DNA of 10,316 nt from an uncultured bacterium (GTDB taxonomy: Bacteria > Krumholzibacteriota > Krumholzibacteriia > Krumholzibacteriales > Krumholzibacteriaceae), in the NCBI GenBank assembly GCA_965371515.1, contig CBDUYR010000075.1, forward strand, positions 1 to 10,316, written 5' to 3'. A program made the translations under genes and the position numbers. Shown here one piece after another: positions 507-10,316 of this stretch; the first letter of the stretch is position 1; each line of letters begins with the position of its first letter. The notes under the pieces were generated by a model, which was given only the letters and a program-made list of their open reading frames with translations, was not told the origin of the DNA and did not search any database.

Positions 507-779
507 ATGAAGATGAAAAATTATGCTGGAATAAGCGAGATACTCAAGGCACTATCGCACCCCGCAAGGGTCGAGATCATCGACAGGTTGGAAAAAAACG
601 GCTGCAATGTGTCGAAGATCCAGAAGAACATCGGATTGCCACAATCAACTATCTCTCAACACCTTAAAATACTCAGGAACGCCGGTATCATCAAGAGCCG
701 CAGGGAAGGGACAAAGGTCTGCTATGAGGTCGAGATCAAGGAAGTGCGCAGCATAATAAGGATGCTCGGAGATCTCTAG
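507..779 (+). CDS. ArsR/SmtB-family transcriptional regulator
   Basis: LKALSHPARVEII...LPQSTISQHLKILRNAGII..RREG...Y winged-helix signature. ATG 507 is preferred over GTG 471 because GGTGA lies at 495-499; ATG 501 or 513 are alternatives. Confidence 0.93.
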   Translation: MKMKNYAGISEILKALSHPARVEIIDRLEKNGCNVSKIQKNIGLPQSTISQHLKILRNAGIIKSRREGTKVCYEVEIKEVRSIIRMLGDL

Positions 780-807
780 AAGATGAAACCCCGCGTTTTT
801 TTAGGTG

Positions 808-837
808 TATCTATCTATATTACAATATAATTGAATA
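808..837 (+). promoter_or_regulatory. Putative operon promoter (-10 TATAAT) overlapped by a palindromic ArsR-type operator
   Basis: AT-rich island with TATATT-AC-AATATA palindrome (816-829) overlapping a perfect TATAAT (826-831), directly downstream of arsR and upstream of tusA. No good -35 is visible. Confidence 0.6.
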
Positions 838-990
838 ACCAGATGAAATAATGCTTTCAAAAGACCATGCGGTATGGTAGATTTTCTCCGTTATAACTCT
901 GCGTGACCCGGTTGATCCGCCCAATGGAGATCGTATTGGAGAAACCGGGAAGGTCTCGTATCCGGGGTAATCCCGGAGGAGGTAGTCTAG

Positions 991-1224
991 ATGGATTTCA
1001 ACGTCGACAAGACCGTTGACTGCAAGGGTCTGTCCTGCCCGATGCCTATCCTACGGCTCACTAAGGAGATTAAGAGCCTCGACAGCGGCCAGGTTCTTGA
1101 GCTTCTCGGCACCGATCCCGGCTCCAAGAGCGATATTCCAGGCTGGTGCGAGAAGACTGGAAACGAGTGCCTCGGCCAGGAAGAAGACGGCGGTGTCTTC
1201 AAGTTCTATATACGTAAAGCATGA
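991..1224 (+). CDS. tusA: TusA/SirA (YedF/YeeD-like) sulfur carrier protein
   Basis: VDCKGLSCPMP with CPxP motif, TDPGS..DIPGWC..TGN, 77 aa; strong RBS GGAGGAGGT at 975-983. Confidence 0.93.
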   Translation: MDFNVDKTVDCKGLSCPMPILRLTKEIKSLDSGQVLELLGTDPGSKSDIPGWCEKTGNECLGQEEDGGVFKFYIRKA

Positions 1225-1292
1225 TTCCATAGAATACGCGCTGATTTGAATGTTCGATCTGCCGTAGTTACGCTTAAAAGGAGCGGTATTCC

Positions 1293-2504
1293 ATGGAAAA
1301 TAACGACAAAAGCGCCCTTCGCCAGCTGTGGGACACATTCTTCAGCAAGAGCTGGCCGTTGTGGGTAGGCGGGATCCTGCTTGCCTTTCTCAATGTTCTT
1401 CTATTTCTGATCAGATCCCCCTGGGGTGGAAGCGGAACATATATGAGCTGGGGGGAGAACCTGTACCAGAAACTCGGATTAATCGGACTCCACGATATCA
1501 CACCAGTGATCCTTCATCCCTACGGACTACTCGGTACGTTAACGCTTCTCGGCGCCTTCGCCGGGGCTCTGATGGGACGCGATTTCGCGGTCAGGGTTCC
1601 CCCTGTGGGCGAGATGGTCAAGGGATTCATCGGCGGAGCGCTCATGGCACTGGGAGCGACGCTCGGCATCGGCTGTACGATCGGCGGATTCCTCAGCGGT
1701 TGGGCGGCCCTTTCCGGCGGCGCGATACTGCTGTCCGTAGGATTCCTGATCGGGACATATGTCGCACTGAAATATCTCTTCTGGGAGATGGAAAAATTTC
1801 CGCAGTTCAGTATGGGGAAGAGCTTCACATGGTTCGCGGCAAAGGGCTCTTCGGGTGTCTGGCAGCCGATTCTCGGTGTCATACTGACCCTGGTCATACT
1901 GATCGGTTTTTCTCTCCGATTCAGTGCCGATAACGTTTTCGCAATGTTCGCAGTAGTTGGCCTGGTTATCGGGATAATCCTTCAGAGGTCGCGTTTCTGC
2001 ATAGTCCGAGCTTTCCGTGAGCCGTTTATGACCGGTGAATCGGAAGCGCCTGTCGCCGTGATGGCTGCGCTCGCCGTAGGCATCATCGGTTTCACAGTGA
2101 TCAAATACATGGGAGTGGGCACCTCGACCCCGGGTGCGGCGAGGGCGCTTGCCATGACATGGGTATATCCCCATTTCTGGCTCAGAGCGCTTATCGGCGG
2201 CACGATCTTCGGGTTGGGAATGACGGTTGCCGGCGGGTGCGCCGTGGGAACGATCTGGAGGGCCGGCGAGGGACATGTCAAGCTCTGGTTCGCCGCTCTC
2301 GGGTTCCTGCTCACCTCCCCGATATCGAAGAAATTCATCGTACCGGCATTTTCAGAGATGCTGCCCGAATGGGCTAAGCAGAAGCTCTTCCTTCCCGACC
2401 ACCTGGGATACTGGGGCGCGCTGCTCGTCTTCTTCGTGCTGCTCGTGGCCTGGTACGCATTCGTCAAGTGGAACGAAAAGACCGGCAAATTCTCTGCCAT
2501 TTAG
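1293..2504 (+). CDS. yedE: YeeE/YedE-family sulfur (or selenium) compound inner-membrane transporter, YedE-type domain order
   Basis: 403-aa polytopic protein with three family Cys motifs: GIGCTIGG (C128), QRSRFC (C236), AGGCAVG..WRAGEG (C316); RBS AAGGAG upstream; adjacent to tusA. Confidence 0.9.
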   Translation: MENNDKSALRQLWDTFFSKSWPLWVGGILLAFLNVLLFLIRSPWGGSGTYMSWGENLYQKLGLIGLHDITPVILHPYGLLGTLTLLGAFAGALMGRDFAVRVPPVGEMVKGFIGGALMALGATLGIGCTIGGFLSGWAALSGGAILLSVGFLIGTYVALKYLFWEMEKFPQFSMGKSFTWFAAKGSSGVWQPILGVILTLVILIGFSLRFSADNVFAMFAVVGLVIGIILQRSRFCIVRAFREPFMTGESEAPVAVMAALAVGIIGFTVIKYMGVGTSTPGAARALAMTWVYPHFWLRALIGGTIFGLGMTVAGGCAVGTIWRAGEGHVKLWFAALGFLLTSPISKKFIVPAFSEMLPEWAKQKLFLPDHLGYWGALLVFFVLLVAWYAFVKWNEKTGKFSAI

Positions 2505-2519
2505 TGAGGAGTGTGTGAG

Positions 2520-3032
2520 ATGAAGCTGTTTACGCTGTTTACGATCGCCGCCCTCGCCATCGTCTTCTCCGGATGCGGAGGAGCAGGTATCGAAGGCAGG
2601 GGACCGAAGACTTACGAGAACGCCGGGCAGATCGTCTCGGAGGCGAAGGCCGGCGTTGACCGGATCGAGATAGACGCGTTCAAGGTGAAGATGGAAAGCG
2701 ACGATATGTTCGTCGTCATCGATGTCCGTGAGCCTGACGATTACTACGAGGACAGCATCCCGGGGTCGATCAACATCCCGCGCGGAATCCTCGAGTTCAA
2801 GATCGCCGACGAGAAGTACTGGGACAGCGAAGGGCTCTTTGCTCCCGGGAGGGATGAGGAGATCATTGTATATGGCCATAAGGTCGACCGAGGCGTTCTC
2901 GCGGCTGAGACTCTCGTGAAACTCGGCTATAAAAATGTGAAGCATCTCTACGGAGGGTGGATCGTGTGGACGGAGGGCCCTGAGGCTCTCGACGTAGAAG
3001 AGGTCGTTGAGGAAGGCGGATGCGGGGGTTAA
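2520..3032 (+). CDS. Rhodanese-domain lipoprotein lacking the active-loop Cys, with C-terminal GGCGG
   Basis: Start ATG 2520 after GAGGAG. Lipobox FSGC, rhodanese motifs IDVREPDDY..SIPGSINIPRGILE and LGYKNVKHLYGGW, active loop VYGHKVDRG, and C-terminus EEVVEEGGCGG*. Confidence 0.85.
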   Translation: MKLFTLFTIAALAIVFSGCGGAGIEGRGPKTYENAGQIVSEAKAGVDRIEIDAFKVKMESDDMFVVIDVREPDDYYEDSIPGSINIPRGILEFKIADEKYWDSEGLFAPGRDEEIIVYGHKVDRGVLAAETLVKLGYKNVKHLYGGWIVWTEGPEALDVEEVVEEGGCGG

Positions 3033-3206
3033 TTCGCATAGATAAGAAAAGGCATGTTTAATCAGTTGTAAGTAATTGTCCTAAAAGGAGGTAGAGCAAC
3101 TTCCATACGGGATTCAGGCCTCCCGGCGGTGGGGATGCAGGAGACACCCTGCCGGCGAACAGACCTGGTGCGTTGATTTGAATAAAATGTATTTCTGGAG
3201 GATAAG

Positions 3207-4175
3207 ATGAGTTCAAAGTACAGGTATATTCTGGTCCTGCTGGCCATAGCCGCGCTGTTTATCTCCGGCTGCAGCGAGGATTACACCTCTCCCGAGGATG
3301 GAACAAAGTCGGAGACATTGAGGAACTACCTTGTCGCCAACGACATGGACCTTCCCGATATGATCACCGACTGGCTCATTGGCGCCGACGTGGTGCACGG
3401 CAACGAGTCGACATATTATATAATCGATATCCGCGATGAGGGTGTTTACAACACGGGGCATGTACCCGGCGCCGTTAACACTACACTGGGCAACATTCTT
3501 GTCGAGGCGACCAATGCGGACGGCAAGCCGATCGTTGTTGTCTGCCTCACCGGTCAGGTCGCCGGCCACGCCGTGATAGCCCTCCGCCTAAGCGGATATT
3601 CCGACGCCATGGTGATGAAGTTCGGTATGAGCTCCTGGCACAGCGATTTCGACAGCTGGACAGCTAACACTGGTAACATCGCTTCCAGTCTTGAAAGCTG
3701 GATCGATCCTCCCGGCAATATCGCTGCCAGCACCGAGCATGACTATCCGTTGCTATCCGCCAGCGCGGCCGATGGTGCCGGTATCCTCGCCGAGCGCGTA
3801 TCCGCGATGCTCGCAGGCGGATTCAAGGGCATCAGTGCCTCCGACGTCCTTGCGGCGCCGTACGTATATTTTATCAACAACTACTGGGCCGCGAGCGATG
3901 TTACCACTTACGGGAACATCACAGGCGCCAGGAGGATCAATCCGATGGGTCTCGCAGACGGCTTTATCAAGTACAACGATTCCGGCGCTACCGTGGTCAC
4001 CTACTGCTGGACCGGCCAGACATCGTCGATGATAACCGCCTACCTGACGGTTCTCGGCTACAACGCCAAGAGCCTGAAGTACGGTGCAAACGCCATGATC
4101 TACGACGACCTGACGGCGCACAACTGGACAGGATCGTTCGATTACACGTATGAAGCGATTACGGCTCTTCAGTAG
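3207..4175 (+). CDS. Tandem two-domain rhodanese lipoprotein
   Basis: Lipobox ISGC, IIDIR...GHVPGAVN, and two Cys loops VVCLTGQVA (C113) and TYCWTGQTS (C267); RBS GGAGG at 3197-3201. Confidence 0.88.
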   Translation: MSSKYRYILVLLAIAALFISGCSEDYTSPEDGTKSETLRNYLVANDMDLPDMITDWLIGADVVHGNESTYYIIDIRDEGVYNTGHVPGAVNTTLGNILVEATNADGKPIVVVCLTGQVAGHAVIALRLSGYSDAMVMKFGMSSWHSDFDSWTANTGNIASSLESWIDPPGNIAASTEHDYPLLSASAADGAGILAERVSAMLAGGFKGISASDVLAAPYVYFINNYWAASDVTTYGNITGARRINPMGLADGFIKYNDSGATVVTYCWTGQTSSMITAYLTVLGYNAKSLKYGANAMIYDDLTAHNWTGSFDYTYEAITALQ

Positions 4176-4279
4176 AATTCGATCTGGTCCGGTATGAGCC
4201 GGACAAAGTAAATGGTCTTACCGGGAAAGAAGGAAACGGCAGGGAGCCGCTTCCCGACTCCCGCCCGAAAGGAGAACAA

Positions 4280-5320
4280 ATGAAGTTTCTTTCACTTCTC
4301 TTACTCGGAATCGCTCTTCTTATTCCCGTCTCTTCCAATGCCCAGGGGTGTATGGAAGGCGGGTCAGATGAGGGAGTGAACGTGATTGGCTTCATCCAGC
4401 CGCAGTTCGACTGGTTAGATATAAACGACTCAAATAACAGCGATGCAAGCTTTGCGTTCAACAGGGCGAGGCTGGGAGTCACCGGCAGCGTTCCCTATGA
4501 TTTCAGCTACTACTTCATGATGGAGTTCAGTCCGAGATTTGATGATGCTCCCTACATGCTCGACGGATTTATAACCTACACGAGATTCGGGGATCCGGCG
4601 AAGTTCACCTTCGGTCAGTTCAAGCAGCCGTTCAGTCTTGAACGTAACATGCCCTGTCACGCTCTTTACACGATCAACAGATCGATGGTCGTCGAGCAGC
4701 TCGCGATGGACAGGGACATGGGGTTCATGTTTTTCGGTGATTATAAAAAGAAGGTCAGCTACAACCTGGCCGTCATGAACGGAACGGGACTAGGCATGCC
4801 CGACGACAACAACGCCAAGGACTGGGTCGGAAGAGTCGTTGTGACTCCCATGACCGGTATCGATATTGGCGGAGGCTTTCGATACGGTACATCCGCACCG
4901 AGCGTAGTGGATGCAGAAGAGGATACACATACACGTGGCGGCCTTGATCTCACGGTCACATACAAAGAATTCAAATTCTTTGCCGAGTATATCTACGGCA
5001 AGGACGAGGGTTCCTATACCGAGGGTGGTGGCTGTGGGGGGCCCGGCGAGATCGTCGAGGGTTCGAAGAAACGTAACGGTATGTACGCCATGCTCATATG
5101 GTCCACCAAGTGGAATCTGGAGCCTGTGTACAAGTATGAGTTCTTCGAGGAGGACATGGATATAACGGATAACACAAGGCATGGTCATACATTCGGATTG
5201 AACTATTACCCGAACGACTGGACCAGGCTTCAGGTCAACTATCTGCGCTGCATCGAGGAATTCCGGCCTGCGCTGAGAAACGACAAGCTCCTGGTCCAGA
5301 TGCAGATCAAGATCATGTAG
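4280..5320 (+). CDS. Outer-membrane porin, OprO/OprP (phosphate-selective porin)-like
   Basis: Signal peptide (SNA|Q), F.FNRARLGV.G, GQFKQPFSLE, TINRS, GLNYY and RLQVNY beta-strand motifs, amphipathic terminal strand LLVQMQIKIM; RBS AAAGGAG. Confidence 0.85.
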   Translation: MKFLSLLLLGIALLIPVSSNAQGCMEGGSDEGVNVIGFIQPQFDWLDINDSNNSDASFAFNRARLGVTGSVPYDFSYYFMMEFSPRFDDAPYMLDGFITYTRFGDPAKFTFGQFKQPFSLERNMPCHALYTINRSMVVEQLAMDRDMGFMFFGDYKKKVSYNLAVMNGTGLGMPDDNNAKDWVGRVVVTPMTGIDIGGGFRYGTSAPSVVDAEEDTHTRGGLDLTVTYKEFKFFAEYIYGKDEGSYTEGGGCGGPGEIVEGSKKRNGMYAMLIWSTKWNLEPVYKYEFFEEDMDITDNTRHGHTFGLNYYPNDWTRLQVNYLRCIEEFRPALRNDKLLVQMQIKIM

Positions 5321-5338
5321 TTTTCTGGAGGAATGTAT

Positions 5339-6196
5339 ATGAAGAAGCACTTTATTCTTGCGGGGCTTATTATTGCGGCTCTGTTCGTGGGCCAGGTGGC
5401 CGAGGCTCAGGTAATCTCGGTAAAGGAACTTGCGGGATTGATGGATGCCGGCGATGTGATCGTCGTCTCGGCGAGAAAGACCGCAGATTACCAGAAGGTT
5501 CACCTTCCAGGCGCTGTGCATCTCTGGCATGAGGACTTCTACGTAGATGGTGACATCAAGGCCATGCTGAAGAGTCCCGATGAGATCGCGAAGATCCTCG
5601 GCGAGAAGGGGATCTGCGGCGAGAAGGCGATAGTGGTATACGACAACGGCAAGAACACATTCGCCGGCAGGATCTACTGGATCCTCAAGTACATGGGCTG
5701 CAGTGATGTCCGTATCCTCGACGGCCATATGAAGATGTGGCGCAAGGGCCGCAAGCCCGTGACCAAGGATCCGGTCGAGATCACCGCCGTCGAGTTCAAG
5801 GGAACGGTCAACACGGCCGCGATAACCACGATGGATCAGGTGATAGCAAAGAAGGGTGATCCAGGGACCGTTCTCGTCGACAACAGGGACAAGGAAGAGT
5901 TCGACGGCGAGAAGGGGATGATCGACCGCAAGGGGCACATCCCCTCTGCGATCAATTTCAATTACAAGGAGATCGTCAACGAAGACGGAACGATCAAGGA
6001 TAAGGCCGAGATCGAGAAGCTCTTCTCCGGTGCTGGAATCACAGCGGACAAGGAAGTGATACTCTACTGCGAGACAGGGATAAGGGCCGGGATCGTCTAC
6101 ATGGCGCTTACTTCAATGCTCGAGTATCCGAAAGTCAGCGTTTATGACGGCGCCTTGTTCGAATGGGTATCAGTCGCGGACAACGCGGTGGAATAA
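5339..6196 (+). CDS. Exported two-domain thiosulfate/3-mercaptopyruvate sulfurtransferase (SseA/RhdA-like)
   Basis: Signal peptide (AEA|Q), HLPGAV, inactive N-domain VVYD, GRIYWIL, LDG, GHIPSA, catalytic loop YCETGIRA (Cys codon 6068-6070), VYDGALFEW. ATG 5339 is preferred since GGAGGA (5327-5332) abuts ATG 5333. Confidence 0.92.
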   Translation: MKKHFILAGLIIAALFVGQVAEAQVISVKELAGLMDAGDVIVVSARKTADYQKVHLPGAVHLWHEDFYVDGDIKAMLKSPDEIAKILGEKGICGEKAIVVYDNGKNTFAGRIYWILKYMGCSDVRILDGHMKMWRKGRKPVTKDPVEITAVEFKGTVNTAAITTMDQVIAKKGDPGTVLVDNRDKEEFDGEKGMIDRKGHIPSAINFNYKEIVNEDGTIKDKAEIEKLFSGAGITADKEVILYCETGIRAGIVYMALTSMLEYPKVSVYDGALFEWVSVADNAVE

Positions 6197-6224
6197 TCTG
6201 TTGACCCTGAAAGGGGAACGTGAA

Positions 6225-6584
6225 ATGAGCAAGACAGCCATAACGATCAACGGCGCAGACGCCAAGAGCGTCTACCCGGCGATCATAATCGCGGTATCCT
6301 CCGCGGCGACGGGCGACGAAGTCGTCCTGTTCTTCTCGCCGTTCGGCGCACCGGTGATGGTGAAGGGCGCGTTCGAGAAGATGAACGAGGAGACCGAGCA
6401 TATGCCCGACCTCATTGAGATGATAGACGGGCTCAAGATGCTCGGCGCAAAATTTCTCGTATGTGAACTGGCGTTGGATTATCACGGAATCAAGGCAGAG
6501 GATTTTATAGAGGAAGCGGAAATCGTCGGCGCGACGACATTCGTCGGCGCTGTTCAGGGCGCCGAGCTGACGCTTTCTTTCTAG
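6225..6584 (+). CDS. DsrE/DsrF-like (DsrE2/DrsE-type) sulfur relay protein
   Basis: 119 aa from ATG 6225 (RBS AAGGGG): A..GDEVVLFF...GA, GAKFLVCELAL, IVGATTF...TLSF; single conserved Cys. Confidence 0.85.
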   Translation: MSKTAITINGADAKSVYPAIIIAVSSAATGDEVVLFFSPFGAPVMVKGAFEKMNEETEHMPDLIEMIDGLKMLGAKFLVCELALDYHGIKAEDFIEEAEIVGATTFVGAVQGAELTLSF

Positions 6585-6617
6585 GGTCCTGGAAACATCT
6601 ATCAAGGAGGATAGAAA

Positions 6618-6842
6618 ATGGCAACCGAGCAACTGGACGCTTTGGGACTTAAGTGCCCCCAGCCGATTCTCAAGGTCGTCGCTAAAATTCCGACGATGAC
6701 AGCGGGCGATATCCTCGAGGTTCTCGCAGATTGTCCTTCATTTCCGACGGATATGAAGGCCTGGTGCGAAAAGACCGGCAAGCCCCTTCTCATGCTCACG
6801 ACCGATGGAGAAGGCAAGCACACAGCTCAAATACAGGTATAA
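6618..6842 (+). CDS. tusA: Second TusA-family sulfur carrier protein
   Basis: LDALGLKCPQP, GDILEVLADCPSF..DMKAWC; RBS AAGGAGG. Confidence 0.9.
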   Translation: MATEQLDALGLKCPQPILKVVAKIPTMTAGDILEVLADCPSFPTDMKAWCEKTGKPLLMLTTDGEGKHTAQIQV

Positions 6843-6850
6843 ACGTCCAC

Positions 6851-6915
6851 CGGGGAGCGCTCGAACGAGACATTCACGCGGATATCTTACCTTACCGGGT
6901 GCTCCCTGACTTTTT
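6851..6915 (+). terminator. Long imperfect hairpin followed by a short U tract between tusA2 and mvhD (terminator, attenuator or mRNA-stabilising stem)
   Basis: CGGGGAGCGCTCG (6851-6863) pairs with CGGGTGCTCCCTG (6896-6908) allowing G-U; inner GAGACATTC/GGATATCTT extends it; followed by ACTTTTT. Confidence 0.45.
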
Positions 6916-6948
6916 CCGCCGGCTGTTCTGCTGGCAAACGAAACGGAT

Positions 6949-7383
6949 ATGACGGGCAAAGAAAAGGAATTCAGTCCGAACATCGTTGGATTTCTCTGCA
7001 ACTGGTGCACATACGCTGCGGCCGATCTTGCTGGTTCGACGAAACTCGAGATCTCACCGGCTTTCTCGGTGGTGAGGGTGATGTGCTCGAGCCGCGTCGA
7101 TCACAATCTTGTCCTGTCGACCTTCTTCGAAGGGGCGGATGGGGTACTGATCGCAGGCTGCCATCCTGGCGACTGTCATTACGGCAAGGGTAACTATTAT
7201 ACGAGGCGGCGTTACGCCCAGCTGAAGAAGGTCCTCGTGACCCTTGGTCTAGAACCGGAGAGGATCCGCCTCGTCTGGATATCGGCTGCAGAGGGAAAAA
7301 AGTATGCGGAAGTTATCAACAGTTTTACCGAGAAGATCAAGGAACTCGGGCCGAGCCCGATAAACAGCGATCAGCGTCTTTAA
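6949..7383 (+). CDS. mvhD: MvhD/FlpD-family [2Fe-2S] subunit
   Basis: IVGFLCNWCTYAAADLAG, RVMCSSRVD, GADGVLIAGCHPGDCHY.KGNY, GLEPERIRLVWISAAEG, LGPSP. Confidence 0.96.
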   Translation: MTGKEKEFSPNIVGFLCNWCTYAAADLAGSTKLEISPAFSVVRVMCSSRVDHNLVLSTFFEGADGVLIAGCHPGDCHYGKGNYYTRRRYAQLKKVLVTLGLEPERIRLVWISAAEGKKYAEVINSFTEKIKELGPSPINSDQRL

Positions 7384-7398
7384 AGAAGAGTGTGAGGG

Positions 7399-8724
7399 AT
7401 GAACAGGGATAGCGTTCTTGTAATCGGGGCGGGGCTTGCTGGGATGAAGGCCGGACTCCTTCTGGCCAACGCCGGGAAAAAGGTCTACCTCGTCGAGAAA
7501 CTTCCATTGATCGGTGGGATGGCGATAAAGGACGAGGAGAGCTTTCCCAATTTCGAATGTTCCACGTGCATGGTAGCGCCGATTCAGCAGGAGGTGCTGC
7601 AGCACCCTGACATCGAGACGATGACTCTGTCGACAGTCGAAAAGGTAGTGGGGGTCGTCGGCGATTTCAAGGTCACGATCATGAAGGCCGCTCGTTACGT
7701 AAGCATGACAGACTGCATCGGGTGTGGGATGTGTTACGAGCCGTGCCCCGTGTCGATCAGCAACGAGTGGGAAGAAGATCTGGGGGAGATGAAGGCGATA
7801 TACGTTCCCACGGCGGGTTCGCTTCCTAACGTACCGACCATAGACCCGCAGCATTGCATCAAGCTCAACGGAAGCGAGGAGTGCAATGCGTGCGCGGAGG
7901 CCTGCATGTTCGGTGCGATCAAGCTCGACGACAACGATGAAAAAATCGATGTCGAGGTCGCAGCGATAGTAGTTGCTACAGGCGCGGATATATACGACGT
8001 GTCGGGTCTCGAAGCTCTTGGATACGGTTCCTGCCCCGGGGTGTTTACGCCCCTCGAGTTCGAGAGGCTCTTTGCCTCCAACGGTCCGACGTCGGGTGAA
8101 CTGACGATCAGGGATACGGGAATCACACCGAGTAAGATAGCCATAATACATTGCGTTGGCAGGAAAGAGCAGGGTTACTGTTCTAGCGTCTGCTGCATGT
8201 ATTCGCTGAAGTTTGCTCACTTCCTCAAACAGAAACTTCCAGAAGCTCTTGTCAGAAATATCCACTCAGACATATGTGTGCATGACAAGACGTACCAGAA
8301 GTTCTTCGACGGAGTCAGGGGCACGGACACCGAGATGCTCTACTGCTCCTCAATAGAGAATATTTCCGTCTCAGCCAATGGTTCAGGGCTGAAGGTGAAG
8401 TACCCTGATGGGAAAGGGGACGAGCAGACCGTGGATGCCGACATGGTCATCCTGGCGGCGGCGATGGTTCCCGAAAAAGGATTGTCCGGTCTGGCCGAGC
8501 ACCTTGGAATAGAGCTTGATGGAAATGGATTTGTAAGGTCCCTCGAAGAGAATATCGGGTCGATCGAGACAACGATAGAAGGCATATTCATCGCAGGTTC
8601 GGTAGAGGGGCCAAAGGACATACAGACATCTGTGATACAGGCCGAGGCTGCGGCCGGAAAGGTCATGGCATGTCTCGATGCCATGCCGGAGGCGGAGATG
8701 GTCGAGTCAGGGACAGGTGAATAG
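7399..8724 (+). CDS. hdrA: HdrA-like FAD/Fe-S protein, short form (core plus inserted ferredoxin; no N-terminal domain, no C-terminal ferredoxin)
   Basis: VIGAGLAG FAD motif at the very N-terminus, FPNFECSTC, CIGCGMCYEPCP and CIKL..ECNACAEAC, LEFERL, HCVGR..YCSSVCCMYSLK, GPKDIQTSV.QA.AAA. Confidence 0.92.
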   Translation: MNRDSVLVIGAGLAGMKAGLLLANAGKKVYLVEKLPLIGGMAIKDEESFPNFECSTCMVAPIQQEVLQHPDIETMTLSTVEKVVGVVGDFKVTIMKAARYVSMTDCIGCGMCYEPCPVSISNEWEEDLGEMKAIYVPTAGSLPNVPTIDPQHCIKLNGSEECNACAEACMFGAIKLDDNDEKIDVEVAAIVVATGADIYDVSGLEALGYGSCPGVFTPLEFERLFASNGPTSGELTIRDTGITPSKIAIIHCVGRKEQGYCSSVCCMYSLKFAHFLKQKLPEALVRNIHSDICVHDKTYQKFFDGVRGTDTEMLYCSSIENISVSANGSGLKVKYPDGKGDEQTVDADMVILAAAMVPEKGLSGLAEHLGIELDGNGFVRSLEENIGSIETTIEGIFIAGSVEGPKDIQTSVIQAEAAAGKVMACLDAMPEAEMVESGTGE

Positions 8725-10316
8725 ATGAAAGCTAAAGTCGGCATATATATCTGCGAGTGCGGGCCCAACATCTCCGAGAGAGTAGACATCCCGAAGATCA
8801 GCGAGGAACTCCTCTCATCTGGTCGGTACGACGATGTAGAGCTGATAGTGAAGAATTACGGCCTGCTCTGCTCGGGTGACGGCAAGACATTCCTCGAGGA
8901 AGAGATAAAGGAGAACGGCTTCACCCACCTCGTGATAGCCGCCTGTTCTCCTAGAGATCACAACAAGACCTTCATCAATGTCTGCAAGCAGACCGATCTG
9001 AACCCTTATCTATATAAGCTCGTCAATATACGCGAGCACTGTGCCTGGATCATCCCGGACAAGGAGGAGGCATCCAGAAAGGCCATCCAGTACATACACG
9101 GTGGCATAAAGAGGGTGCTTTACCAGTCACAGCTTCTGGAAAAGCAGATCGATATCACGCCGGACGTGCTCGTGCTCGGCGGCGGGATCGCCGGGATGGA
9201 GGCGGCTCTCTCCCTGGCGGGGGAGCAGAGAAGGGTCTACCTGGTGGAGAGATCCGAGGAGTTGGGAGGCGTTTCCGCCGGTTTCAGCAGGTTGCTTCCG
9301 AGGCAGGGAGGAGATACGGGGAAGATCCGCTCTCGTCGCGAAGAAGTTGAAAAGAACGAGAACATAAGGGTATTCAGGAACTCGGAGCTGACCAGGGTCG
9401 TCGGATTCCTCGGCAACTACGAGGTTGTTGTAGAGTCACGCAGCGAAGGGAACCCGGTAGATCTGGTGGTCGGGGCGATAATTGTCGCCACGGGCTTCAG
9501 GCTCGCCAAGCTGGGAGAGATCGCGGGTTTCGATTATTCCGACGACGACGAGGTATACACCTCACTCGAGATCGAGAGGATGGTCGCGAACGGCGACGGG
9601 GTGAGAATGAGGAACGGGGAAGAGCCGAAATCGATAGCGCTCGTTCACTGTGCCGGTCGCAAAGAGAAGGGTTACTGCTCACAGATATGCTGCAATTACA
9701 TGATGAAGATAGCCAGCTATATAAAGGATCAGTCGGCGGACATAGATGTAGCGGAGTATTTTAAGGGCCTCTGTCTTCCACACAAGGAGGACCAGAAGTT
9801 CCAGGAGAGCGTTGCTCAGACTGGAGTCGATTTCAGGAGATCTGAGTCGATCGGCATCATGGGAACGACGGTCGTGTCGGTGGGGATGGATAGTGAAGAG
9901 TCTAAGCAGAAGTTCGACATGGTTATAGTCGCTCCGGCAATGGAGCCGGCAGGGGGGACCGAGGCTCTTGCAGAGCTTCTCGAACTTCCCCTCCACGAAA
10001 CAGGTTTCTTCGAGGAAGCCCACCAGTCGATAAATCCGACGGGGACTACTACTGATGGAATGTTCGTGATAGGCGCGGCGCAGGGTCCGAGAGGGATCAG
10101 CTCATCGATGCTCTTTGCCCAGGCGGCGGCAGGCGAGATTGCCACTCAACTCATCCCTGGACAGAAGATCACTCCAGAGGTAAAGGTTTCCGAGATCCTC
10201 GAGGCTTACTGCACAGGGTGCATGACATGTCTCGAGGTCTGCGCTTACGGAGCTATTTATTTCGATGATGACAAGGCGATATCAGTGGTCAACGAGGCCA
10301 TATGCCGGGGATGCGG
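8725..10316 (+). CDS. hdrA: Second HdrA-like FAD/Fe-S protein (N-terminal domain, core and C-terminal ferredoxin), 3'-truncated by the window
   Basis: Manually translated open frame of 530 codons from ATG 8725: MKAKVGIYICECGPNI, LLCS, AACSPRDH, LNPYL..VNIREHCAW, VLGGGIAG, LEIERM, HCAGR..YCSQICCNYMMK, GPRGI, CTGCMTCLEVCAY, ICRGC. Missing from the ORF track because there is no stop in the window. Confidence 0.93.
   Translation, partial: MKAKVGIYICECGPNISERVDIPKISEELLSSGRYDDVELIVKNYGLLCSGDGKTFLEEEIKENGFTHLVIAACSPRDHNKTFINVCKQTDLNPYLYKLVNIREHCAWIIPDKEEASRKAIQYIHGGIKRVLYQSQLLEKQIDITPDVLVLGGGIAGMEAALSLAGEQRRVYLVERSEELGGVSAGFSRLLPRQGGDTGKIRSRREEVEKNENIRVFRNSELTRVVGFLGNYEVVVESRSEGNPVDLVVGAIIVATGFRLAKLGEIAGFDYSDDDEVYTSLEIERMVANGDGVRMRNGEEPKSIALVHCAGRKEKGYCSQICCNYMMKIASYIKDQSADIDVAEYFKGLCLPHKEDQKFQESVAQTGVDFRRSESIGIMGTTVVSVGMDSEESKQKFDMVIVAPAMEPAGGTEALAELLELPLHETGFFEEAHQSINPTGTTTDGMFVIGAAQGPRGISSSMLFAQAAAGEIATQLIPGQKITPEVKVSEILEAYCTGCMTCLEVCAYGAIYFDDDKAISVVNEAICRGC

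Follow-up and report, generated by a model that had tools for sequence, protein, structure and literature searches.

In the sHdr-LbpA system of Hyphomicrobium and Aquifex, a YeeE-type importer, TusA, DsrE, and rhodanese feed an HdrA complex, an ArsR-type regulator is present, and types I and II are defined by syntenic shdrC1B1AHC2B2, or by shdrC1B1AHB3 together with etfAB (PMC11094781). FlxABCD-HdrABC of Desulfovibrio vulgaris and Hdr/Flox-HdrL of Syntrophobacter combine FlxA, FlxB, a FlxC-like protein, MvhD/FlxD, HdrA, and HdrC in an operon (PMC5947623). In Geobacter, the OprP-like porin ExtI and the rhodanese lipoprotein ExtH are encoded beside and upstream of the polysulfide reductase MccSep (PMC5877670, PMC13510729), and YeeE-YeeD (TsuAB) and the YTD clusters bring together a three-Cys YeeE, TusA/YeeD partners, and a DsrE-family gene (PMC11073785, PMC13047784, PMC13490349). 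Here we analyzed a stretch of 10,316 bp, hereafter the window, which is the entire contig C75 (CBDUYR010000075.1) of the 3.08-Mb, 99.6%-complete genome G000 of an uncultured bacterium, and whose genes have their closest named homologues in Ca. Krumholzibacteriota. With a probability of roughly 0.55, we read its gene cluster as a sulfane-sulfur import line feeding an HdrB-less HdrA/MvhD/Flx complex that would act as a cytoplasmic electron sink in a fermenter; that the front end handles sulfane sulfur appears quite probable. The twelve open reading frames (ORFs) of the cluster, assigned to families by Pfam, are the following:

507..779, + strand: ArsR/SmtB repressor (HTH_5; NF033788 above cut-off; numbering from the ATG at 513)
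991..1224, + strand: TusA1, with CPMP motif (PF01206)
1293..2504, + strand: YeeE/YedE inner-membrane sulfur transporter (PF04143; Cys128, Cys236, Cys316)
2520..3032, + strand: RhdA, rhodanese-fold lipoprotein (no active-site Cys; Cys168 at 3021-3023)
3207..4175, + strand: RhdB, tandem rhodanese lipoprotein (Pfam; active-site Cys113 and Cys267, one per domain)
4280..5320, + strand: OprO/P-fold 16-strand porin (Cys24 at 4349, Cys126 at 4655, Cys252 at 5033)
5333..6196, + strand: RhdC, soluble exported tandem sulfurtransferase (Pfam/NCBIfam; Cys246 in domain 2, CETGIR)
6225..6584, + strand: DsrE-family protein (DsrE_2; Cys80)
6618..6842, + strand: TusA2, two-cysteine TusA/YeeD-type carrier (Cys13 at 6654, Cys39 at 6732)
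6949..7383, + strand: MvhD/FlxD [2Fe-2S] adaptor (PF02662)
7399..8724, + strand: HdrA half 1 (FAD domain and inserted ferredoxin; without N-terminal domain)
8725..10316, + strand: HdrA half 2 (N-terminal and FAD domains, C-terminal ferredoxin; truncated at the contig end)

All twelve ORFs lie on the + strand, separated by spacers of 0-211 bp. Pfam detected HTH_5, TusA (twice), Sulf_transp, Rhodanese (three times), Porin_O_P, DsrE_2, and FlpD, and the last two ORFs were FAD/Fe-S proteins with HdrA as the top NCBIfam match, under the cut-off. Signal peptides read from the sequence comprised lipoboxes in RhdA (Cys19) and RhdB (Cys22) and SPI-type leaders on the porin and RhdC. An initial annotation of this DNA, which had listed twelve co-oriented genes of these families, including a Cys-bearing porin, three exported rhodaneses (two lipoproteins and one soluble), and two HdrA, was thereby confirmed, with the refinements that RhdA has no active-site Cys and that the two HdrA genes are complementary halves of one tandem unit. 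A promoter and terminator scan of the locus stayed at chance (6 versus 6.9 and 7 versus 7.0).

Taken together with the downstream genes described below, the locus differs from each of these systems. Unlike sHdr-LbpA, it has no sHdrB1/B2/B3, sHdrH, or LbpA that we found and carries a methanogen-type HdrA with MvhD and Flx; it would work in the reductive direction and adds an outer-membrane porin and exported rhodaneses. Although TusA, DsrE, and rhodanese accompany it, an sHdr assignment was rejected, because no CCG protein is encoded in the operon and no LbpA in the cluster. With Flx-Hdr, reportedly the subject of a 2015 study by Ramos, it shares a small protein thiol as the presumed acceptor as well as flxA, flxB, flxC, and flxD next to hdrA, but hdrB does not accompany hdrC in the operon, no DsrC was found in the genome, a two-Cys TusA and DsrE occur instead, and there are several HdrA modules plus FrhB-like and NuoEFG-like subunits. 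Whereas ExtI has one Cys (PMC5877670), the porin of the locus has three that are nearly invariant, and it is accompanied by three rhodaneses and a cytoplasmic back end of Hdr type. As in YTD clusters, yedE, tusA, and a dsrE-like gene are present, but they are embedded between a porin-rhodanese unit and MvhD-HdrA, the window has no gene of chp1 or chp2 size, and, by ORF calling and Pfam, no unassigned ORF between them is a candidate for chp1 or chp2. In this comparison the locus would resemble an sHdr-type TusA/DsrE relay operating in the opposite direction, or Flx-Hdr with TusA2 in place of DsrC, while qualifying as a member of neither. We found no description of the gene set, the three-Cys porin, or a seleno-porin in the literature covered; supplements and most subscription papers were outside its scope, and a mention there is possible. 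New here are the three-Cys porin, which probably bears selenocysteine (Sec) in relatives, the SoxY-like arm of RhdA, the two-Cys TusA, and the partition between Psr or octaheme tetrathionate reductase (OTR) and Hdr.

The porin matched PF07396 with 63 bits, and its AF2 model (pLDDT 92.4; residues 1-3 below 50) had 16 barrel strands, with OprP (2o4v) as the best PDB match in Foldseek (TM 0.75), which places it in the OprO/OprP fold. Cys24, Cys126, and Cys252 were conserved in 120/120, 120/120, and 118/120 of the best homologues. By strand order in the predicted model, not by distances, Cys24 would lie in the N-terminal periplasmic tail, Cys126 in loop L3, and Cys252 at the tip of loop L6 inside a GGGCGG motif, so that the three Cys appear to occupy three layers rather than a single site. 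In general porins, loop L3 folds into the pore. The family is also found in named isolates, namely, Draconibacterium aestuarii, Maribellus, Ancylomarina, and Marinifilum. Membership in ExtI was rejected, because the porin scored 36.7 bits against the NF040900 cut-off of 150 and has three Cys versus a single one; four homologues reached 44-60 bits.

Relatives of the locus were then compared in 160 fetched loci, 80 anchored on the porin (the best 80 of at least 552 confirmed relatives) and 80 anchored on DsrE (the best 80 of 163 confirmed metagenome loci). An in-frame TGA stood for porin Cys252 in 7 of 86 matches, four Cloacimonadota and one Delongbacteria among them, for YeeE Cys316 in 2 of 26, and for the RhdA tail Cys in three loci (GG-TGA-x-stop); the porin frames remained open for 92-105 further residues, to the normal C terminus. 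Bacterial selenocysteine insertion sequences (SECIS) are modeled as a hairpin 16-37 nt downstream with a G in the loop (PMC13188914). By an alignment-based test, whose energy cut-off was looser than that of this model, a SECIS-type hairpin with a G-bearing loop starting 16 nt past the porin TGA was detected in 6/7 TGA versus 4/74 Cys versions, and both YeeE TGA sites had a SECIS-type hairpin, whereas a motif-pattern scan missed four of the seven porin TGA sites; two of the three RhdA tail sites passed the hairpin scan. At the known MvhD Sec site, used as a control, the hairpin occurred in 25/26 TGA versus 0/58 other versions. Six of the seven porin sites thus combine an aligned TGA with a bacterial SECIS-type hairpin, as expected of a selenoprotein gene, and in L040, L083, and L093, which are among these seven loci, TGA also occupied the known MvhD Sec site. 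Sequence evidence of this kind makes Sec likely at porin position 252 in relatives. Exchange of Cys for Sec is a sign of a redox-active thiol, a rule reportedly set out by Fomenko in 2007, and its occurrence at relay sites argues against a purely structural cysteine. G000 itself has tRNA-Sec, yet the relay genes of the window use Cys at every position where relatives have TGA. Neither "porin" nor PF07396 appears in a 2026 review of the prokaryotic selenoproteome, be it in its main text or in its family table (PMC13188914).

Conserved Cys were likewise found along the remainder of the putative relay. RhdA has lost its active-site Cys (loop YGHKVDRG) and ends in an acidic arm, EEGGCGG; among 120 homologues the active-site position was C in 69, G in 35, and S in 16, the Cys thus being lost in 51, while the tail Cys (GC(GG) end) was present in 116. 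The SoxY carrier likewise has a C-terminal GGCG(G) Cys arm on an exported protein, its end here being read from a primer sequence in PMC5336275, and the motif of porin loop L6 is similar; RhdA, however, is a rhodanese fold with a lipid anchor, and SoxY was not found in the genome. RhdB and RhdC retain their active-site Cys, those of RhdB being conserved, and their genes occurred in 77/80 and 76/80 porin loci. In YeeE, Cys128 and Cys236 were each found in 25/25 matches and Cys316 in 24/26, the other two being the TGA versions. TusA1, encoded before yeeE in those porin loci having it, is likely the cytoplasmic partner of YeeE. TusA2 had Cys39 in 64/64 orthologues, 62 of them with Asp-Cys, and its Cys13 and Cys39 are numbered identically to C13 and C39 of Escherichia coli YeeD (PMC11073785). 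In Cloacimonadota, the operon has an additional DsrE2 gene that separates flxB from flxA (L093:4476-5015, L096:4406-4945). The arsR gene was present in 28/80 DsrE-anchored loci, mostly immediately 5′ of dsrE, and belongs to the core module described below. Persulfide-sensing ArsR proteins (BigR/SqrR/SoxR) have a Cys pair in helices 2 and 5; Cys31 and Cys70 of our ArsR were present in the seven orthologues inspected, with Cys70 not in the last helix, and the BigR model matched with 55.9 bits (cut-off, 155).

The neighbors of the porin provide a further view of what the cassette serves. A periplasmic reductase was encoded in 30/80 porin loci, being Psr/Phs in 21 and an octaheme tetrathionate-reductase-type enzyme in 13; these versions adjoin the porin-rhodanese unit in Bacteroidota, and 17 of the 18 full-length PsrA had a Tat motif. 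Full-length YeeE or TusA was found in none of these 30 loci, while Hdr-type genes occurred in 17/80 porin loci, every one of which had YeeE and/or TusA, and no locus held both reductase types. Because YeeE and/or TusA is found in all Hdr loci and neither, at full length, in the periplasmic-reductase loci, the inner-membrane importer accompanies the cytoplasmic enzyme. The cassette appears to be a front end that can be exchanged among sulfane-sulfur reductases, in which porin and rhodaneses suffice if the enzyme is periplasmic and YeeE and TusA are added if it is cytoplasmic. A split YeeE pair was seen in ten of the 80 porin loci, mostly after psrC. Six porin loci had YeeE/TusA without an Hdr call, comprising one with an HdrA start at the contig end, three with less than 10 kb downstream, and two in which unrelated genes fill about 10 kb. 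In a quick tree of the porin, restricted to 74/80 loci by leaving out six with a porin ORF below 300 aa, all Hdr-type, the Hdr label (12 rows of the 74) needs six changes. Two loci first labeled hdrL, L077 and L084, proved to have GltD-type matches, and these labels were removed from the Hdr count. Beside the porin cassette of Bacteroidota, an ExtM-like cytochrome match was noted in 19 of loci L025-L104; in many cases it was encoded on the other strand and accompanied by a Rieske gene.

The locus is a composite of two modules, in which an envelope cassette (porin, RhdA, RhdB, RhdC, and YeeE/TusA) is inserted between arsR and dsrE of a core (arsR-dsrE-tusA2-mvhD-hdrA-hdrA-flx), as follows from the frequent occurrence of the core without the cassette. 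The relay genes had been predicted to be syntenic with mvhD-hdrA elsewhere, and so they are: a close porin homologue was found in 5/36 same-family genomes, from three genera, the same five hold a close HdrA1 orthologue, and gene order is identical as far as the contigs reach, although rearranged in other phyla; conservation of this kind speaks against chance. Three genomes of another family had HdrA1 and DsrE orthologues without a close porin. DsrE-anchored loci (n = 80) contained tusA2 in 64, mvhD in 55, hdrA1 in 46, hdrA2 in 37, arsR in 28, and the porin in 6, with hdrB in 1 and HdrF/HdrD-like matches in 7; named relatives of the core include Cloacimonadota and Aminicenantes. The insertion site of the cassette varied: it separated arsR from dsrE, dsrE from tusA2, or hdrC from frhB, or it preceded a Qmo-like set, dsrE-tusA-mvhD-hdrA-hdrA-qmoC, and in one locus (L199) tusA-yeeE lay between hdrA2 and flxC.

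Examination of the back end showed that HdrA1 lacks the N-terminal domain and has an inserted ferredoxin, and HdrA2 the opposite; in one relative the two align end to end with a downstream 1019-aa tandem HdrA. Both halves keep the equivalents of Glu356 and Lys409 (5ODC numbering), whose role was reportedly described by Wagner in 2017, and in both the LExER and CCxYxxK motifs (HA4 cysteines beside FAD) align, as expected of a bifurcating HdrA. The reading frame of HdrA2 is carried on, across an exact overlap of 55 bp, by either of two 88% identical contigs, C68 or C69, whose genes encode two FlxC/FdhB-like proteins, MvhD, the 1019-aa tandem HdrA, MvhD, FlxC, FlxB, FlxA, HdrC, an FrhB-like protein, and an HdrA′-NuoE fusion, the Flx names being assigned from domain content and gene order. 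The initial annotation had suggested looking downstream for flx genes and a further mvhD, and both are there. On the unbroken contig of a relative (G028), the operon ends in NuoF and a 1111-aa NuoG/tandem-HdrA gene, the 3′ part of which opens contig C84 in G000. That C68 and C69 are two operon copies was rejected, because there is a single upstream contig and three other contig pairs suggest assembled variants; C68/C69, C83/C119, C142/C143, and C72/C149 are 84-91% identical and probably co-assembled variants. In another relative (G025, L023:8056-20000), a block labeled from its sequence as membrane-bound NiFe-hydrogenase-like/Mrp-type follows the operon directly. Three CCG proteins are encoded in G000, none in the operon: one in a canonical hdrCBA-mvhDGA set on C7, one linked to ETF on C34, and one on C5. 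The C7 set (C7:60744-70030) reads hdrC-hdrB-hdrA-mvhD-mvhG-mvhA plus hypothetical genes and holds the sole HdrB-sized CCG protein with an hdrC neighbor. In each of the five cassette-bearing relatives, too, a CCG protein resembling HdrB in type or size is encoded at another place in the genome.

We also searched G000 for other sulfur routes. Family searches found no NIR_SIR protein (DsrAB/AsrC), DsrC (PF04358), NrfD/PsrC, or SoxY, and no AprA scored above the cut-off; GcvH gave a single match, on C1 and far from the locus, and RnfD and NiFe hydrogenases were present. No other dissimilatory sulfur route was found in this genome, which agrees with the proposed independence from Dsr and Psr, and a check of the host for dsrAB, sox, sHdr, and lbpA likewise returned no DsrAB, SoxY, or sHdrB set and only the distant GcvH-family match. 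Elsewhere in G000, two loci (C7:1-7587 and C40:17682-24877; labels read from sequence) combine dsrE/tusA with genes for an MvhD-like, two HdrA-like, and a QmoC-like protein as well as a small gene, C40 adding an NADH-oxidase/CoA-disulfide-reductase-like gene; they resemble type II Qmo, described as of unknown role (PMC10504309), in a genome where AprA was not found. In L051, L052, and L055, it is this dsrE-tusA-mvhD-hdrA-hdrA-qmoC set that comes after the porin cassette. A molybdopterin oxidoreductase without a Tat leader, with a cysteine-desulfurase-like C-terminal part, runs from C21:1-1226 into C83:6281-8497 or C119:947-3163; its top local match is PsrA at 28%, and it is possibly a Mo-enzyme/NifS fusion. 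Positions 1-160 of the window match, apart from a few mismatches, the 3′ terminus of a gene on C41 that ends in a sorting-domain-like tail; they are unrelated to the locus.

We propose that the locus converts external polysulfide, S0, or thiosulfate sulfur to sulfide. Cys252 on the outer loop of the porin (Sec in some relatives) would capture sulfane sulfur and pass it to Cys126 in the pore loop and on to the periplasmic Cys24; RhdB and RhdC would shuttle it, and RhdA may hold it on the GGCGG arm in a SoxY-like manner. The three Cys of YeeE would then pass the sulfur across the inner membrane to TusA1, and DsrE would load TusA2, whose Cys13 and Cys39 could carry a persulfide or trisulfide and play the role that DsrC has for Flx-Hdr in sulfate reducers. 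Feeding of an Hdr-like complex by TusA/DsrE has a precedent (PMC11094781). Finally, electrons from NAD(P)H (FlxA, NuoEF-like) and ferredoxin would run through MvhD to the HdrA flavins, releasing H2S. Cleavage of the S-S bond is the weakest step; our guess is that the HdrB encoded on C7 might dock on the orphan HdrC of the operon.

Several observations weigh against this proposal. The hdrB gene was found neither in G028, whose operon could be followed over its full length, nor in the operon of G000, nor in any of the 80 porin loci, so that the persulfide-cleaving subunit is not encoded here; the initial annotation had made its case depend on hdrBC nearby, and of this pair hdrC is in the operon and hdrB is not. 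Polysulfide, at a potential of about -260 mV, is a poor high-potential acceptor, which makes true bifurcation doubtful and confurcation or plain electron disposal likelier. The cassette is absent from 16/20 DsrE loci whose flanks extend 3 kb or more in each direction, and in one genome (G039, L136, C2:1532000-1551999; neighbors labeled from their sequences) the core lacks it and is surrounded by hdrCBA, sucCD, two fumarate-reductase-like genes forming a pair, and genes resembling 2-oxoacid oxidoreductases. Conversely, L030 and L087 have the cassette with YeeE and no Hdr within about 10 kb, one of their genomes holding an unlinked HdrA1 orthologue and the other none above 36% identity, and 27/80 porin loci, many on short contigs, have neither partner type. 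The porin loci are moreover related and in part the same contigs as the syntenic relatives, so that the counts overstate independence. Of the continuous persulfide chain first envisaged, the conserved relay Cys, three of which exchange with TGA, stand; since the core mostly occurs without envelope genes, the chain is optional and not obligate. The envelope-to-Hdr relay as a whole is hence partly supported, by synteny, the relay Cys, and the lack of another detected sulfur route, but neither as an obligate chain nor with hdrB in the operon.

A biosynthetic role, in which imported thiosulfate or sulfane sulfur builds the many Fe-S clusters of Flx-Hdr and DsrE/TusA2 are maturation factors rather than substrates, is unlikely. 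E. coli YeeE/YeeD do take up thiosulfate for growth and require C13/C39 (PMC11073785), no NIR_SIR sulfite reductase was found in the genome, the operon has no catalytic HdrB, and the core often stands alone; this role, however, fits poorly with the 30/80 loci that have no full-length YeeE and in which the porin-rhodanese unit is a neighbor of periplasmic respiratory reductases, and the likely Sec at three relay positions points, by the Sec/Cys rule given above, to catalytic turnover. The core conserved without envelope genes could also suggest an internal redox loop, in which a TusA2 (Cys13/Cys39)-DsrE disulfide cycles between HdrB and thiol-dependent enzymes such as thiol:fumarate reductase, external sulfur being an optional re-oxidant or merely detoxified. 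The G039 core beside hdrCBA and fumarate-reductase-like genes, hdrB in 1/80 and HdrF/HdrD-like matches in 7/80 DsrE loci, the canonical HdrA in most of the family, and the CCG proteins elsewhere in all five cassette-bearing relatives agree with such a loop. We nevertheless regard it as unlikely, given that it leaves the repeated insertion of the cassette into this operon, at different positions, unexplained; it is compatible with the last step of the import line proposed above and differs only in the oxidant of the carrier.

Handling of selenium, tellurium, or thiophilic metals, as proposed for Geobacter ExtH/ExtI, would mean that selenite, As(III), or Hg(II) is bound by the three porin Cys and that the ArsR regulator senses metals. 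It is hinted at by the weak NCBIfam matches to ExtI (36.7 bits, as above) and ExtH, by ExtM-like cytochrome matches in 19/80 porin loci, and by the loss of selenite/tellurite reduction in extI mutants (PMC5877670), but is quite improbable, as the best-matched neighbors are PhsA/PsrABC and octaheme tetrathionate reductase, no ars, mer, or selD gene is among the neighbor clusters annotated, a subset of all clusters, the ext-cluster enzyme prefers polysulfide (PMC13510729), and the modeled porin Cys would lie in three layers instead of one site. Operation in the oxidative direction, as sHdr-like oxidation of protein-bound sulfane sulfur to sulfite in sulfur oxidation or disproportionation, seems very improbable. 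The same carrier types feed sHdr (PMC11094781), and it has been suggested that YeeE-TusA-DsrE clusters mark disproportionators (PMC13047784); against this, G000 has no sHdrB1/B2/B3, its three CCG proteins all lie outside the operon, its single GcvH-family match is distant from the locus, and no Sox, AprA, Dsr, or DsrC was found.

Returning to the import line, it is possible, although we hold this tentatively, that the porin is a covalent sulfur conveyor with persulfide hand-off over three Cys and Sec at the outer tip in some lineages, forming a front end that Bacteroidota and uncultured phyla of the FCB group share for sulfane-sulfur respiration and here serving an HdrB-independent pathway in which a two-Cys TusA replaces the heterodisulfide. 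If true, it would be the first outer-membrane channel in which the substrate moves by persulfide hand-off. According to two papers from 2026, the outer-membrane route of polysulfide or thiosulfate is unidentified (PMC13510729, PMC13490349), and this porin family is a concrete candidate for the polysulfide route, with three mutable Cys; given its presence in named isolates, it is testable now. The Sec version, if true, adds a porin to the prokaryotic selenoproteome. If the Hdr link is true, HdrB-less HdrA modules gain a substrate, and sulfur intermediates would be reduced by fermenters in sediments that, having neither dsr nor psr, count as non-sulfur-reducers in marker-gene surveys.

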